From IMG/VR virus record IMGVR_UViG_3300025395_000007: DNA of 64,000 nucleotides, one strand, 5' to 3'. Each line of letters starts with the position of its first letter. Positions within the stretch are counted from its first letter, which is position 1. The DNA is from a virus. Made by a program: the position numbers and the translations under genes. Below the pieces are notes generated by a model. That model was not told the DNA's origin. It did not search any database and worked only from the letters and a program-made list of their open reading frames with translations. Shown here piece after piece: positions 4,335 to 32,078 of the stretch.

Positions 4335-6794
4335 TCACCCGAAAAAACTTTCCAATGTTGATATGTGTTCTACTTTCCAATTAATAGCATTAGCAATGGA
4401 CTTTAGCGGCTCCAAATATGATTTACTAAATTGCATATCACGATCAATATATGAATCCAAATTAAATTCTTTTGGTAAATAATCAATCGCTGCAATTACA
4501 GTATCATTGATAGGATTTGGTGTTTTAAGATAAACAAACTTAATCTTATCACCATCCTGAATCATTGGTATACTATCTATTTTATGTTTATTCAATAGAT
4601 GATTAAACAACAGAACACCCTTGACTTGAATTGGTGTTCCCTTACCATAGATAGAATGTTTATCGCGATACTTACTCAAACCTTTAACGCCTCGAGGAAA
4701 TGCTACATCTTCAAATGGAAGATCCATAAACTCGTTACGAAAATCTTCATTGAACTTGATCAGTTCCTCTTCATCGCCATTCATAATAATACTTAGAGCT
4801 GCCTTTAACTTCTCGCGGCATGCATGAGGCGTTGATGAACGAACAGCTTCGATGCCCTGAATCTTCAGCTTTGGCTTATCATACTGCACACCTTCAACGT
4901 TCCAAGCGTTGAGGATATACATCTTCTTTGCTTTCCAAATACCTTTATTGGCAATGGTTTCGCGTTTCATCTTCATTTTCTGCTGATATGCGTTCATCAT
5001 ATCAGCTAGTTCTTCATAACACTTATCCATAAACGGTTGGATTTTACCTTCACAGAAATCATCAATTAGCTTTACAGCTTTAAGCTGATCCGAACCATCA
5101 GGAATAAGATTAGAAAAAGTAATATAGATGGAATCAGTGTCTGAAGCAACAACATAATCAACTCCTTGAGTTCTACACACCTTGTTCATGAACTCGTTCA
5201 TTTTCTTTTCGATCCAACGAATAGAAAGCTGACCTGATGTTGTAATTGATTCGGCATTATTAAAACTAAACCAACGGAAATACTTATTACCCAATGCACC
5301 GTAAGCTGAGTTCAACTGAATTTTACGAGCCAATTGCATATTATGATAACGAGAAACTAACTTAGAATCTTCTGGATTTTTAGTTTCCTCATATCGTTTC
5401 TTAGCTTCAATCATCAGCTTTTTATATTCTGCTCGTTCGTTATACATCTTTTCCATAAGAGCAGGTAGGAAACCTTGTTTGTCCTTACGGTATGTACAAC
5501 CATTAGCAGCATAAGCTACCATTCCATCTTGATATTCCCAAGTACCATCCAATAGAGAATCAATTGAAGGGAAACTTTTCCTTTCAACGAATGTTTCAGG
5601 GCTGATATTATATTGCATGATCAAATGCGGATAAAGACTATTCAAATCGAAAGATACAATCCAATTATGAAGACCTTCCTGAACTTCTTTAACGTGACCA
5701 CCGACCAATTCAAAATCTTCTTTTGATTCTTTGAATTGAGGAATAACAATACCCTGCTCAAGTAGATAGTTATGAATGATAATATCCCATGGACGAACGG
5801 TAGTCATTGTATCATTATAGTTTACCTTGGCATCATAGGCCAGAGCCATGACTTGCTCAAGGAACTTCATCTTGTCATCTAGTCGGTCAACCAGCACACA
5901 GTCATGAATATTATACTCAATAAACTTCTGATAATTATTTTTATATAGATCCAATAGATTACCATACTCTGAGTAATCAATTTTTTTCTCACCAAGTTCG
6001 ACCTGAGAAATATAATCTAGCTTATAGCTTTCTTGATTACCAAACGTAAACTTACGATATAGCTGATAGTAATCCAAAACAGAAATACCTGCAGGAGAAT
6101 AACTTTGATTCTCTTTGCCTCGGAACTCTACTGTTTTTGTATCAAGAATATGCCATGGCGACAGCCGCTTGGTTTCTTTATCGTTGAATAGGTTCTTGAT
6201 ACGATTGGTCAAATATGGAATGTCAAAGAACTCAATATTCCAACCAGTGACAATATCTAGATCAAGAAACTCCCATGTCTTTAGAAACTCTTGAATGAGG
6301 TGATGCTCATCGCGACATTGAACATAAAATGTATTCAGGTCATTTGTCTTAAACTCACCACAACCGAACACATAGTTTCTCGCCCTGACACGAACAGTAA
6401 TCGCAGTCAGAGGCTTATCAGCTTTGGTGATGTCAGGAAATCCTTCATCGGCTGCGCACTCAATATCAAGTGTACCGATGTTTACTAGACGAGGATCGTA
6501 ATCGATGTCGCCTTTAAATGTATCAAAGATATAAAGATAAGGGAAAGTAGTAAGCCCATAGATATCCATATTAGATACATCACTGTACCGTTCAATGAAC
6601 TCTCTTGCATCACTAATACTATCAAAATCAATTTTATCTACAGGCTTACCATCTAGCGTTCGAAACTTACCATTTGTTTTTGGAACGAACATATATGGAG
6701 AATAATTAACTATCTCTTTTGTTCTAAGACCTTTATCGAATCCGCGAACATAAACCTTGTTGCCACGTTGAAATACGTTTGTATAAAAAGCCAT
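4335..6794 (-). CDS. 43: Family B DNA polymerase (T4 gp43), unsplit
   Basis: ExoI DIE, GWNIEFFDIPY, SFDLNSLYPH, KIQLNSAYG, ASDTDS. Likely start MAFYTNV with an AAGGAG RBS. Confidence 0.98.
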   Translation of the reverse strand: MAFYTNVFQRGNKVYVRGFDKGLRTKEIVNYSPYMFVPKTNGKFRTLDGKPVDKIDFDSISDAREFIERYSDVSNMDIYGLTTFPYLYIFDTFKGDIDYDPRLVNIGTLDIECAADEGFPDITKADKPLTAITVRVRARNYVFGCGEFKTNDLNTFYVQCRDEHHLIQEFLKTWEFLDLDIVTGWNIEFFDIPYLTNRIKNLFNDKETKRLSPWHILDTKTVEFRGKENQSYSPAGISVLDYYQLYRKFTFGNQESYKLDYISQVELGEKKIDYSEYGNLLDLYKNNYQKFIEYNIHDCVLVDRLDDKMKFLEQVMALAYDAKVNYNDTMTTVRPWDIIIHNYLLEQGIVIPQFKESKEDFELVGGHVKEVQEGLHNWIVSFDLNSLYPHLIMQYNISPETFVERKSFPSIDSLLDGTWEYQDGMVAYAANGCTYRKDKQGFLPALMEKMYNERAEYKKLMIEAKKRYEETKNPEDSKLVSRYHNMQLARKIQLNSAYGALGNKYFRWFSFNNAESITTSGQLSIRWIEKKMNEFMNKVCRTQGVDYVVASDTDSIYITFSNLIPDGSDQLKAVKLIDDFCEGKIQPFMDKCYEELADMMNAYQQKMKMKRETIANKGIWKAKKMYILNAWNVEGVQYDKPKLKIQGIEAVRSSTPHACREKLKAALSIIMNGDEEELIKFNEDFRNEFMDLPFEDVAFPRGVKGLSKYRDKHSIYGKGTPIQVKGVLLFNHLLNKHKIDSIPMIQDGDKIKFVYLKTPNPINDTVIAAIDYLPKEFNLDSYIDRDMQFSKSYLEPLKSIANAINWKVEHISTLESFFG

Positions 6795-10215: not shown

Positions 10216-10893
10216 TTAGTCCCATAAAGCACGAAAGTATTTACCAAACAATCTCATACCGTTGGCAATACGTTTTTCCCATTTGTCGTAGCCTTCTTTA
10301 TCAAAGACATGGGTGTCATTTGGTCCACGTTCCATTTCATGACCTACTAATTTACCATCTGCATCTTTGACTTCTTTCCACTTTACATCATGTTCACCTG
10401 AATGGAATTGCATATCGGCCTCATCATCAATTTGCTGAGCGAACGCCCAAATCATTTCGTCGAGAATCCATTCCCAGCGTTTAAAATGATTATCATCAGT
10501 ATCATATTCAAATTCTTTTGAAGAGGCAGCTGTTGACTTTAGTTCATCTGGAACATCTTCATCATCAGTATTTGGTGCACCATGAAGTGCTTCTTTCAAT
10601 TTGACGAGAGTAGGATGAATGATTAATGCAAGAGTATGATCGGCCGACCAAATATCATAACCATCGATACGAATTTTGATCTTACGTTCACACCAGTTGA
10701 AATATCTGTTGAAGGTTAAATTTAATACATCTTGCCATTTATCAATTAACCAGATAACAACTTTATCTAGCTTCGTATAATTTTCTTCGTCAACCTTCCA
10801 ACCAAAATCGACATTATGCATCTTTGCAAGATACCATTCTTCGAAATATCGAGTTGACCAATGTGCTTTATGCGGACCAATATATACTTTCAT
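10216..10893 (-). CDS. Conserved-looking phage hypothetical protein
   Basis: 225-aa ORF with YDIWSADHTLALII and GMRLFGKYFRALWD. Confidence 0.75.
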   Translation of the reverse strand: MKVYIGPHKAHWSTRYFEEWYLAKMHNVDFGWKVDEENYTKLDKVVIWLIDKWQDVLNLTFNRYFNWCERKIKIRIDGYDIWSADHTLALIIHPTLVKLKEALHGAPNTDDEDVPDELKSTAASSKEFEYDTDDNHFKRWEWILDEMIWAFAQQIDDEADMQFHSGEHDVKWKEVKDADGKLVGHEMERGPNDTHVFDKEGYDKWEKRIANGMRLFGKYFRALWD

Positions 10894-10903
10894 TTTCTTT
10901 TCC

Positions 10904-10911
10904 TATAAATA
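10904..10911 (+). promoter_or_regulatory. T4-type late promoter for the spanins
   Basis: Exact TATAAATA upstream of the ATG at 10940. Confidence 0.75.
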
Positions 10912-10939
10912 ATAGCATGACGATATAATGGAGGATCGA

Positions 10940-11299
10940 ATGCCATCTTTTTTAAACAAATTTACCATATATGGTTTTATTTTAGCTGCAATACTAGGTA
11001 TGTTCGGTAGCGCTGTACATATGTGGGTTAATACTATTAAACAAGAAGCGCAACTAGAATTTAATAATAAACAAATTCAATTAGTTCTCGATCAACAAAA
11101 ACAATTCATGGACAACATGCAAAAAGTAAATGAAGATCAGAAAACTGCTATTCAAGATCTCAATACTCAAAATACAGAATTAGAATCACACATTAATGAT
11201 ATACAATCTTATCTAGCCTCAGCGCAAGCGCAGAAAGATAGCAGACCATCTTCACCAGTTATTAAAAATACAATCAAAAAAATGTCGGATGGCCAATAA
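10940..11299 (+). CDS. Inner-membrane spanin (Rz-like)
   Basis: Single N-terminal TM helix followed by a coiled coil; late promoter; next gene is a lipoprotein. Confidence 0.75.
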   Translation: MPSFLNKFTIYGFILAAILGMFGSAVHMWVNTIKQEAQLEFNNKQIQLVLDQQKQFMDNMQKVNEDQKTAIQDLNTQNTELESHINDIQSYLASAQAQKDSRPSSPVIKNTIKKMSDGQ

Positions 11300-30799: not shown

Positions 30800-31351
30800 A
30801 TGGCTTATTATGTATATAAAATTACAAATAAAATAAACAGTAAATGGTATATAGGTAAACGCAAGCATATGTCGCCGCTTAATGATTCTTACATGGGTAG
30901 TGGTAAACTAATTAAAGCTGCTATTGTCAAATATGGTGTAGATAATTTTATTAAAGAAATATTACAAATTTTTGATACTAATGATGAAGCCGCTAATTTA
31001 GAGAAAACATTAGTAACAAAACAAGCTATCAATACTAATATGTCTTATAACATGCATGAAGGTGGACACGGAGGATTTGCGCATTTAAATGATGGCAGTA
31101 AAGCACATAAAGAGCGATCAAAAAAAGGTGCAATGAACTCTACAGGTAAATTACATCCAAATTGGGGTAAATCTTCGTTTGCTAAAGATGATCCAAGAAC
31201 TATTGAAATGTCTAAAAAAGCAAATGAAAATAGGAAAAAAAATGGTCTTACTAATGAGCATAAAGAAAAAATAAAAATTGCTTCAATAAAAAGAGAAGAG
31301 CAAAGAAGATTAACAGGTTATTATCAGAAAATGTCGGCTGATAATTATTAG
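30800..31351 (+). mobile_element. Free-standing GIY-YIG (Seg-like) homing endonuclease
   Basis: YVYKITNKINSKWYIG, YMGSG, KYGVDNF.KEIL, YN...GG.GG; late promoter TATAAATA at 30773-30780. Confidence 0.9.
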
Positions 31352-31576
31352 AAAATATACAAAATAGCTATGGACTCGGCTCTCGGATGCCGACATCTCC
31401 ACCAATTTATACGGGGATGAAAGGGATCGACATGGTATGGAGTATTTTTTTAGACATCGTGTGCAAACTACGTTAACGTAAGATAAAATTATCTGCAAAC
31501 GATAATTCACTTCTTGAGATGCGCCTAGCGGCTTAATCTCTTGGGTATGAGTTCCACCTCGAAACAGAACGGGCTC
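31330..31576 (+). ncRNA. ssrA: Circularly permuted (two-piece) tmRNA
   Basis: Acceptor piece ends CATCTCCACCA (31404); 8-nt spacer; coding piece starts GGGGATG (31413, G3:U70) followed by GAAAGGGATCGAC; tag 31495-31536 reads ANDNSLLEMRLAA*; terminal hairpin GAGTTC...GGGCTC. The 5' boundary is approximate. Confidence 0.92.
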
Positions 31577-31615
31577 ACTTTATAACACACAAAACACACA
31601 CAAAGGAGACTACAA

Positions 31616-31828: not shown

Positions 31829-31840
31829 TATAATTGGTCA

Positions 31841-31890
31841 CCTAGCGGCTTGATCGGAGTTCGGGAGGCACTTGGCAACAGAAGCCTCCC
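31841..31890 (+). pseudogene. Remnant 3' tail of a second tmRNA coding piece
   Basis: CCTAGCGGCTT.ATC repeats the tag end at 31524 (LAA*); hairpin GGGAGGC-ACTTGGCAACAGAA-GCCTCCC parallels CACCTCGAAACAGAA. Confidence 0.6.
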
Positions 31891-31903
31891 ACCTAATTTT
31901 ATT

Positions 31904-31980
31904 GGCCTCGTAGCTCAGCTGGACAGAGCAATGGATTTCTACTCCACAGGTCGGGCGTTCGAATCGCTCCGAGGTCGCCA
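31904..31980 (+). tRNA. tRNA-Arg(UCU)
   Basis: GGCCTCG/CGAGGTC acceptor, loop TTTCTAC, GTTCGAAT, CCA. Confidence 0.93.
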
Positions 31981-31986
31981 ATTTTT

Positions 31987-32078
31987 GGGGGTGGGTGTTG
32001 GTACACAGGGAGTCCTTATAAGGCTTTCAGCGGCAGATTACCGTTCTCGACAGGGTTCAAATCCTTGCACCCCTACCA
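31987..32078 (+). tRNA. Atypical tRNA with UAU anticodon (nominal Ile) and a long variable arm
   Basis: GGGGGTG/CACCCCT-ACCA acceptor; D arm GTGT-TGGT-ACAC; loop CTTATAA; V arm AGCGG/CCGTT; T arm CAGGG-TTCAAAT-CCTTG. Confidence 0.8.

Follow-up and report, generated by a model that had tools for sequence, protein, structure and literature searches.

That AUA has to be read as isoleucine without AUG being read as well is a well-known weakness of the genetic code, and the known solutions are lysidine, agmatidine, pseudouridine, or a changed isoleucyl-tRNA synthetase (IleRS) together with a changed ribosome. The virus record IMGVR_UViG_3300025395_000007, of which we analysed a stretch of 64,000 nucleotides (hereafter the window), raises the question of how a phage might have this codon read in its host. 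At 31987-32078 on the + strand, ARAGORN calls a 92-nt transfer RNA (tRNA) whose anticodon TAT starts at position 31 of the gene, and the long extra arm of this tRNA(UAU) carries a second anticodon-like loop with GAU at its centre. Judged from its relatives, tRNA(UAU) is a real gene under strong selection. In the explanation that we consider probable as a whole, it would be a working AUA-decoding isoleucine tRNA of the phage that is independent of TilS and keeps the GAU hairpin for the host IleRS.

Fold and conservation of the tRNA(UAU) gene

The minimum-energy fold starts with an acceptor stem, in which positions 1-7 (31987..31993) pair with positions 82-88 (32068-32074) and the first pair is G1:U72. 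G8 (31994..31994) is unpaired and forms a single connector, there being no U8 and no position 9. It leads into a compact D arm (31995..32006) with the 4-bp stem GUGU/ACAC and the 4-nt loop UGGU. After A21 comes the decoding arm (32008..32028), followed by the second anticodon-like arm in the place of the variable arm (32029..32045), with a 5-bp stem and the 7-nt loop CAGAUUA, whose GAU lies at 32036-32038. The next five nucleotides, CUCGA (32046..32050), are unpaired and have the length of a class I variable loop. They are followed by the T arm (32051..32067; 5 bp, loop UUCAAAU) and the 3' strand of the acceptor (32068..32078), which ends with A73 (32075) and an encoded CCA (32076-32078).

For the decoding arm, RNAfold gave a register of 8 pairs with U27 bulged and a 4-nt loop. 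The covariation among relatives supports a 7-bp stem with the 7-nt loop CUUAUAA and UAU at 32017-32019, not this register. The first-pass annotation of this DNA had described an anticodon stem that could be extended to 7 bp; the two extra pairs at the top of the stem, 22:42 (GC/AU/GU) and 23:41 (GU/GC), are kept in the family, and the extended stem can therefore be taken as real. The length of 92 nt, G8, the D arm GUGU-UGGU-ACAC, the 5-bp variable stem and the discriminator A, all listed in that annotation, are likewise confirmed by the sequence, ARAGORN and the fold.

Of the traits of a canonical cloverleaf, the tRNA has the 7-bp acceptor, the D-loop GG, a T stem of 5 bp and a UUCRANY-type T loop. 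It departs from what is expected of an elongator tRNA in having neither U8 with position 9 nor a 5-bp anticodon stem, and its D loop is not one of 7-11 nt with A14. Neither the Rfam tRNA model RF00005 nor the tRNA-Sec models matched 31987-32078, even at E<=10 (gathering score of RF00005: 29 bits), and the sole overlapping Rfam match was to the tRNA-like mascRNA model, at 22 bits.

When IMG/VR was scanned with exact patterns, the gene turned up in 119 fetched contigs of uncultured viruses, up to 242 kb long, with 55 distinct sequences. We aligned 50 distinct members and used 500 shuffles as the null. Standard pairs filled 99.4% of the pair cells, compared with 83.8% in the shuffles, and 17 of the 28 pairs changed on both sides; none of the 500 shuffles reached the observed values. 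When the 3' partners were slid, pairing fell to 39-59%. Changes on both sides occurred at six of the seven acceptor pairs, at all five pairs of the T stem and at pairs 22:42, 25:39, 27:37 and 28:36 of the decoding arm, and pairs 46:56 and 47:55 of the extra arm covary. Since 65:81 also covaries (CG in 37 members, GC in 10, AU in 2 and UA in 1), the T stem has five pairs and the acceptor/T branch is 7/5, not 8/4. The 8/4 or 9/3 fold of the allo-tRNAs was thus ruled out, G8 facing G81 in the window. The folding energy of tRNA(UAU) alone is not exceptional (z = -1.2), and it is because its relatives covary that the gene can be called more than a chance fold.

Because the scans fixed some letters, we read invariance only from scans that left the part in question free. 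With the anticodon loop free (scans via the D arm and the extra arm), all 84 matches had the anticodon UAU in a loop of the form N-U-UAU-A-N, with U33 and A37 invariant. In the decoding loop CUUAUAA, A35, U36 and A37 are invariant and A38 occurs in 90% or more of the members. Scans via the D arm and the anticodon loop returned a set in which the extra loop and its CUCGA junction are invariant. G8 and A73 are invariant in the 50 distinct members, as is the encoded CCA in the family. Within the family, sequences retrieved through the extra arm all have the same D stem; this stem covaries (GACU/AGUC) in copies resembling the type B form from two metagenome-assembled bacterial genomes, L180 and L221 (for types A and B, see below).

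In one subfamily (L058:1410-1500, L059:7439-7529, L088:804-894 and some 35 further loci), the D loop is the 3-nt AAG, without the GG, and the T loop is AGCGUUA, without the UUC, both partners of the elbow contact having changed together. Its genes are not called by ARAGORN. With one subfamily escaping ARAGORN and the gene itself missed by the Rfam tRNA model, inventories of phage tRNAs and analyses of codon supply therefore under-count AUA decoders.

The GAU arm and the use of ATA codons

In scans that left the extra arm free, its loop always had 7 nt, of the form C/U-N-G-A-U-N-A. GAU was central in 30 of 30 distinct sequences, position 2 was never U and position 6 never A. A GAU-type 7-nt loop was found in 51 of the 54 long-armed tRNA(UAU) of the fetched loci and in none of the 87 other long-armed tRNAs (Ser, Tyr, Leu, Lys, Thr etc.) there; the Ser, Tyr and Leu tRNAs of the same clusters mostly have shorter variable loops, none with a central GAU. 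The stem of the arm reads A:U, G:U, C:G, G:C, S:S, and its third pair, C:G, is invariant. When compared by isoacceptor group, it is closest to the anticodon stems of phage tRNA-Ile(GAU), with a small margin in the mean, and some individual phage tRNA-Ile(GAU) are identical to it at 8 of 8 compared stem positions.

In this comparison, the extra hairpin and the 5-nt junction are laid out exactly as are the anticodon arm and the variable loop of a class I tRNA. From its likeness to tRNA-Ile(GAU), the gene can therefore be read as a tRNA-Ile(GAU) into which a 21-nt UAU hairpin has been inserted after position 26. The body is best described as a tRNA of five arms, with the UAU hairpin between the D arm and the second hairpin. 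We define a two-arm tRNA(UAU) by a UAU decoding arm, a second hairpin with a central GAU in a 7-nt loop, and A73, and the gene in the window has all three.

Two class I tRNA-Ile(GAU) genes of the same phage population, at L042:13318-13393 (-) and L104:6588-6662 (+), have the loop CUGAUUA (U37, not A) and G1:U72. Their anticodon stem is near-identical to the stem of the extra arm and their 5-nt variable loop is similar to its junction; tRNA-Ile(GAU) of this type may be the stock from which the extra arm derives. By eye, we also considered whether the GAU loop pairs with the T loop or the UAU loop, and rejected this: the T loop varies and GAU does not, and the GAU and UAU loops are not complementary.

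For the meaning of ATA, the open reading frames (ORFs) of the window were aligned by tblastn to 35 related loci, namely 3 cultured cyanophages and 32 viral contigs found through gp6. We tallied the residues opposite each window codon, leaving out identical codons or subject ATA codons. A first small test on the replication genes alone (about 7 ATA codons) had given a misleading non-Ile picture and was replaced by 150-179 late-gene ATA sites. Opposite the 179 ATA sites, I, V and L occur at frequencies of.26,.20 and.17, close to.27/.24/.15 at ATT sites and.33/.24/.16 at ATC sites; at the sites of Leu codons, L reaches.35-.41. The per-site log-likelihood of the ATA sites is best for Ile (-355.5), followed by Val (-371.9), Leu (-383.9), Met (-399.5), Tyr (-526) and Ser (-540). 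Judged from these alignments, the phage uses ATA as an isoleucine codon; a systematic reading of ATA as Ser or Tyr is excluded, and a reading mainly as Leu is very unlikely.

Among the proteins encoded in the window are gp41, UvsX, gp43, gp32 and gp59-like and gp6-like proteins. Its gp43 is 45-49% identical to that of T4-like cyanophages and about 32% identical to that of T4-group phages, and the carrier is therefore an uncultured T4-like phage. ATA is found 289 times among 17,519 codons. Its share of Ile codons is 0-8% in gp41, UvsX, gp43 and gp32 and 30-57% in most baseplate and late genes, and AGA is split in the same way, being rare in the replication genes and frequent in most baseplate and late genes. 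These per-gene counts agree with the earlier remark that ATA and AGA are frequent in the AT-rich late genes and fit tRNA(UAU) and the neighbouring Arg(UCU). The three tRNAs of the window, Gln-UUG, Arg-UCU and UAU, read CAA, AGA and AUA.

Over all ORFs of the window, the early and replication genes have 39-51% GC and nearly avoid ATA and AGA; the late genes have 26-39% GC, with ATA making up as much as 57% of Ile codons and AGA most Arg codons. Pfam and PHROGs scans of 20 larger ORFs found replication and baseplate proteins, one homing endonuclease and proteins of unknown function. They found no synthetase or tRNA-modifying enzyme among these ORFs, most of the phage genome lying outside the window.

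Proposed isoleucine charging and its alternatives

In the explanation that we favour, RNase P would process the transcript of a tRNA cluster containing the transfer-messenger RNA (tmRNA), Arg-UCU and tRNA(UAU). The mature tRNA, presumably expressed and charged with isoleucine, would then read AUA with a UAU anticodon of the unmodified type, so that AUA, a codon poorly read by the host, could be supplied to the AT-rich late genes without TilS. Because UAU can read AUA without lysidine, such a tRNA is TilS-independent by construction. The proposal of the first-pass annotation that this is a genuine UAU tRNA and a TilS-independent AUA decoder is upheld by the fold, the family, the anticodon and the use of ATA in late genes.

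How this tRNA would be charged is where the GAU arm may come in. E. coli-type IleRS charges tRNA-Ile(UAU) poorly, and UAU tRNAs read AUG as well as AUA on E. coli ribosomes (PMC3575796). The bacterial determinants of isoleucine identity are G34, A35, U36, A37, A38, C29:G41 and A73 (PMC9976931). In the decoding arm, position 34 is U rather than the required G or lysidine, and 29:41 is G:C, not the Ile-type C29:G41. The equivalent G is found only in the extra arm, which presents G34', A35', U36', A38' and C29':G41'. A weak 1:72 pair together with A73 occurs in 48 of 51 members and in 20 of 21 phage tRNA-Ile(GAU); of the tRNAs compared, Ser tRNAs have G73 and Tyr tRNAs G1:C72. The GAU hairpin would be kept because the host IleRS reads G34-A35-U36, the mimic offering the enzyme a hold. 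That the GAU arm is an IleRS handle of this kind we put forward tentatively, as a possibility well short of an even chance. IleRS might use a conformer in which the GAU arm, and not the UAU arm, is stacked under the D stem. Identity would then be split from decoding, IleRS reading one arm and the ribosome the other, and the two states may differ by the arm that is stacked in the five-way junction; this further step seems to us, if anything, slightly less probable than the handle itself.

Several observations weigh against an isoleucine tRNA with such a handle. The pairs C4:G69 and U12:A23 of the E. coli isoleucine identity set are not kept, 4:69 being G:C in the window and variable in the family and 12:23 being G:C. 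The GAU arm is without U33 and A37, an absence that would also prevent decoding by this mimic. The model is weakest in its geometry: in an L-shaped class II fold, a 5-bp side arm would set its loop far from the anticodon site of IleRS, and the handle therefore needs the GAU arm to come into the position of the anticodon arm by alternative stacking. In addition, the IleRS of the bacterial group to which the host of a Lactobacillus carrier phage belongs (see below) is reported to accept UAU, and a handle would therefore seem unnecessary there. Finally, a two-component fit gives the ATA sites a Leu-like character of 22% (confidence interval 10-37%), versus 0-4% for ATT and ATC sites. We attribute this excess to ATA being one mutation away from TTA and CTA and to the asymmetric exclusion of subject ATA codons, while allowing that it may be signal.

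The best-surviving alternative accepts a real AUA-reading isoleucine tRNA and gives the GAU hairpin another sequence-specific partner or purpose than holding IleRS. Candidates are a modification enzyme, an anti-determinant against methionyl-tRNA synthetase or against a tRNA-cutting defence nuclease, the folding of the five-way junction, or a limit on U:G wobble at AUG. The extra loop is invariant while its stem covaries, and some sequence-specific role therefore has to be assumed. The poor fit of the side arm to IleRS speaks for such a role, and so does the misreading of AUG by UAU tRNAs on E. coli ribosomes, a second problem besides charging (PMC3575796). However, the conserved letters are those of the isoleucine anticodon at 34-36 together with A38 and the C:G third pair, all of them determinants for IleRS (PMC9976931), and the arm with its junction resembles the whole anticodon arm of phage tRNA-Ile(GAU). 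We regard this alternative as unlikely, though worth keeping in view. To judge it further, one may add that we know of no other protein that reads GAU in a 7-nt loop, which also counts against it.

If the long-armed body were charged by leucyl-tRNA synthetase, or by the seryl or tyrosyl enzyme, tRNA(UAU) would be a missense tRNA and AUA would partly become another amino acid. The long extra arm, A73 and the small Leu-like excess at ATA sites are in keeping with this, and a class II tRNA(UAU) that is charged only with Leu provides a precedent (PMC3333845). Against it, the ATA sites fit the Ile profile, despite ATA making up as much as 57% of late-gene Ile codons, and the anticodon is fixed, whereas scaffolds whose synthetase is blind to the anticodon (nev-tRNAs and allo-tRNAs) carry many. 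The D arm shows no features of tRNA-Leu, and the 7-nt extra loop with 5 further nucleotides is unlike the arms of the Leu, Ser and Tyr tRNAs of the same clusters; A73 in place of G argues against Ser and the weak 1:72 pair against Tyr. Missense charging is therefore improbable. The earlier suggestion of a non-Ile amino acid is disfavoured for the same reasons, and the check proposed with it, whether Ile columns align to ATA codons, came out in favour of Ile: the ATA sites align with Ile, Val and Leu as ATT and ATC sites do, not as Leu, Ser or Tyr sites do.

A role outside decoding, as a tRNA-like decoy for IleRS, TilS or a defence nuclease or as a regulatory RNA, is if anything slightly more improbable still. 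Such a role has been proposed for many allo-tRNA(UAU), and variants of these showed no activity when tested in translation (PMC5389517); the CAGAUUA loop is found in acidobacterial copies too, and the unusual core is missed by Rfam, all of which would suit a decoy. A decoy would hardly call for CCA, A73, the D-loop GG, a T arm of canonical form and a perfect anticodon loop in which U33 and A37 never vary. It fits as poorly with a place in a tRNA cluster beside Arg(UCU), with late genes that rely heavily on ATA, and with a homing endonuclease cassette (described below) that supplies a functional-looking replacement copy. The weakest reading, a degenerate pseudo-tRNA or a chance ARAGORN call with an unsupported fold, could appeal to the missing Rfam tRNA match and the unremarkable folding energy of the single sequence, and is already refuted by the 55 distinct sequences in 119 viral contigs, with compensatory changes in all variable stems and invariant functional positions, leaving it hardly any probability.

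If an isoleucine tRNA with a GAU handle is the true account, a mobile tRNA with its own synthetase handle would be a further solution to the AUA problem. Such a decoder could be carried by a phage or a mobile tRNA array into any host, with no need of TilS or an adapted IleRS. It would moreover show that tRNA identity can lie, in nature, elsewhere than in the anticodon used for decoding, which bears on tRNA biology and on the engineering of orthogonal tRNAs. A cultured carrier, Lactobacillus phage LpeD, makes the question directly testable.

Known systems, related forms and neighbouring genes

The body had at first been described as tRNA-Sec-like. The 4-nt D loop, the long extra arm and the longer anticodon stem stand as likenesses; the 7/5 branch, the 4-bp D stem, A73 and the lack of a match to the Sec models speak against it. 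Bacterial tRNA-Sec has an 8/5 branch (13 bp), a 6-bp D stem, the anticodon UCA and G73, none of which occurs in the phage tRNA(UAU). In class II tRNAs for Leu, Ser and Tyr, the variable arm has a short loop and 1-2 nt before the T stem, where the phage tRNA(UAU) has a 7-nt loop and a 5-nt junction. The Ser, Tyr and Leu tRNAs of these clusters showed no likeness to the phage tRNA(UAU). We also rejected an origin from the tRNA-Leu(UAG) found after Arg(UCU) in cyanophage S-CAM4, the two sharing their position and no sequence likeness outside the T arm.

The tRNA sets of T4-type phages serve rare codons, those of T4 including Arg-UCU, Gln-UUG and Ile. The T4 Ile tRNA is of class I, has a CAU-derived anticodon and needs the host TilS. 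Like such sets, tRNA(UAU) is encoded by the phage in a cluster, stands with Arg(UCU) and Gln(UUG), and is matched to codons enriched in late genes.

In function, tRNA(UAU) also resembles the TilS-independent tRNA-Ile2 of Mycoplasma mobile, whose UAU reads AUA as Ile without lysidine and which meets the same problems of U34 recognition and AUG misreading (PMC3575796). That tRNA has a class I body and works with a changed IleRS (Arg865) and a changed ribosome (PMC3575796), whereas the phage tRNA must work in an unchanged host. Its body differs by the GAU hairpin, the single connector, the D loop of 4 nt and the anticodon stem of 7 bp. In the allo-tRNAs described by Mukai et al. in 2017, the branch is 8/4 or 9/3 and 35 different anticodons occur; toxin-antitoxin and transposon genes are found near them, and they were regarded as mostly untranslated (PMC5389517). 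Among them, the acidobacterial (8/4) allo-tRNA(UAU) resemble the phage gene in the long extra arm, the lengthened anticodon stem, the small D arm and the predominance of UAU (PMC5389517); the phage tRNA differs in its covariation-backed 7/5 branch, in having always UAU and in standing in phage tRNA clusters. The nematode nev-tRNA-Ile(UAU) shares the class II look and the UAU anticodon. Its origin is a tRNA-Leu, it accepts Leu alone, and the same scaffold carries several other anticodons (PMC3333845); in the phage, by contrast, the extra arm is a copy of an Ile anticodon arm, and ATA serves as an Ile codon. A hairpin that displays synthetase-read letters outside a decoding anticodon is known from anticodon-arm mimics that bind synthetases, such as the E. 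coli thrS operator and others (PMC9976931). Those of the thrS type lie in mRNAs and repress translation (PMC9976931), whereas the phage mimic lies inside a tRNA and would promote charging. Literature searches returned no description of a long-armed or two-armed tRNA(UAU) in phages, and the design of body and second arm appears new to the literature searched.

The same design occurs on another body. In this type A form the D arm is canonical, the UAU arm has 5 bp and the extra stem 4 bp, the junction reads ACGAU, and the extra loop is CAGAUUA, CAGAUAA or UAGAUGG. It is present in the viral contigs L159 and L160, and the loop CAGAUUA stands on type A bodies in L159, L160 and L019. In L019, the ORF of an HNH homing endonuclease (4814-5515, +) lies directly after the anticodon loop of a type B tRNA(UAU), an arrangement also found in L057. 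Of the split type B gene, on the - strand, the 5' half alone is left (5544-5510), and a complete, different type A tRNA(UAU) with a GAU loop follows the endonuclease ORF (4826-4735, - strand). A cassette that brings a complete type A copy into a split type B gene argues that the two forms are interchangeable and that their function is needed.

Blastn of the window's own tRNA against cultured phages gave only T-arm matches to Streptomyces phage tRNA-Ile. Blastn with the type A form found the cultured carrier LpeD, in which an unannotated type A gene lies at MF787246.1 138772-138862 (= L281:1500-1591). In this phage of the Herelleviridae, the two-arm tRNA(UAU) has the loop CAGAUUA and the junction ACGAU, and CCA is not encoded. 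It lies within a tRNA cluster with an HNH endonuclease gene nearby, and ARAGORN calls a tRNA with a 4-letter anticodon (tttg) at L281:2778-2849 of the same phage.

Among prokaryotes, the strict type B scaffold was found in none of 185,579 species genomes. A loose pattern scan of prokaryote genomes gave 27 true long-armed tRNA(UAU) genes among 80 fetched matches, from Acidobacteria (allo-tRNA-like), Acidithiobacillus, Polynucleobacter, Aquiluna, Nostoc and Hyphomicrobiales assemblies. The CAGAUUA loop is shared by these bacterial genes, acidobacterial copies included, and four of the six examined lie within tRNA arrays of 13 to 38 genes.

In the window, a tRNA-Arg(UCU) that reads AGA lies 6 nt upstream of tRNA(UAU) at 31904..31980 on the + strand (ARAGORN; RF00005, 60 bits). 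The two are probably co-transcribed, and the pair recurs in many loci. Further upstream is a permuted tmRNA of the alphaproteobacterial type at 31278-31579, with the tag ANDNSLLEMRLAA. A second copy of the tmRNA 3' end, at 31838-31895, follows a 70-aa ORF, and the sister record G001 matches the window from 31838 onward only.

Other irregular tRNAs were seen in the fetched loci. Bacterial tRNA-Leu normally has a long variable arm, but tRNAs of 76-78 nt with Leu anticodons (UAG, CAA, UAA) and no long variable arm occur in many loci, for instance at L011:1726-1802 (-) and L011:1320-1397 (-). They are common in phage clusters and in bacterial tRNA arrays, including that of Acidithiobacillus (L225). 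L042 carries a Thr(UGU) tRNA of 84 nt (10463-10546, -) and a Lys(UUU) tRNA of 87 nt (10855-10941, -), both with enlarged variable regions, the latter drawn with an extra hairpin. At L109:2446-2520 (-), in the tRNA cluster of a 154-kb viral contig, ARAGORN calls a 75-nt tRNA with the anticodon UUA, matching the stop codon UAA, which may be a suppressor tRNA.

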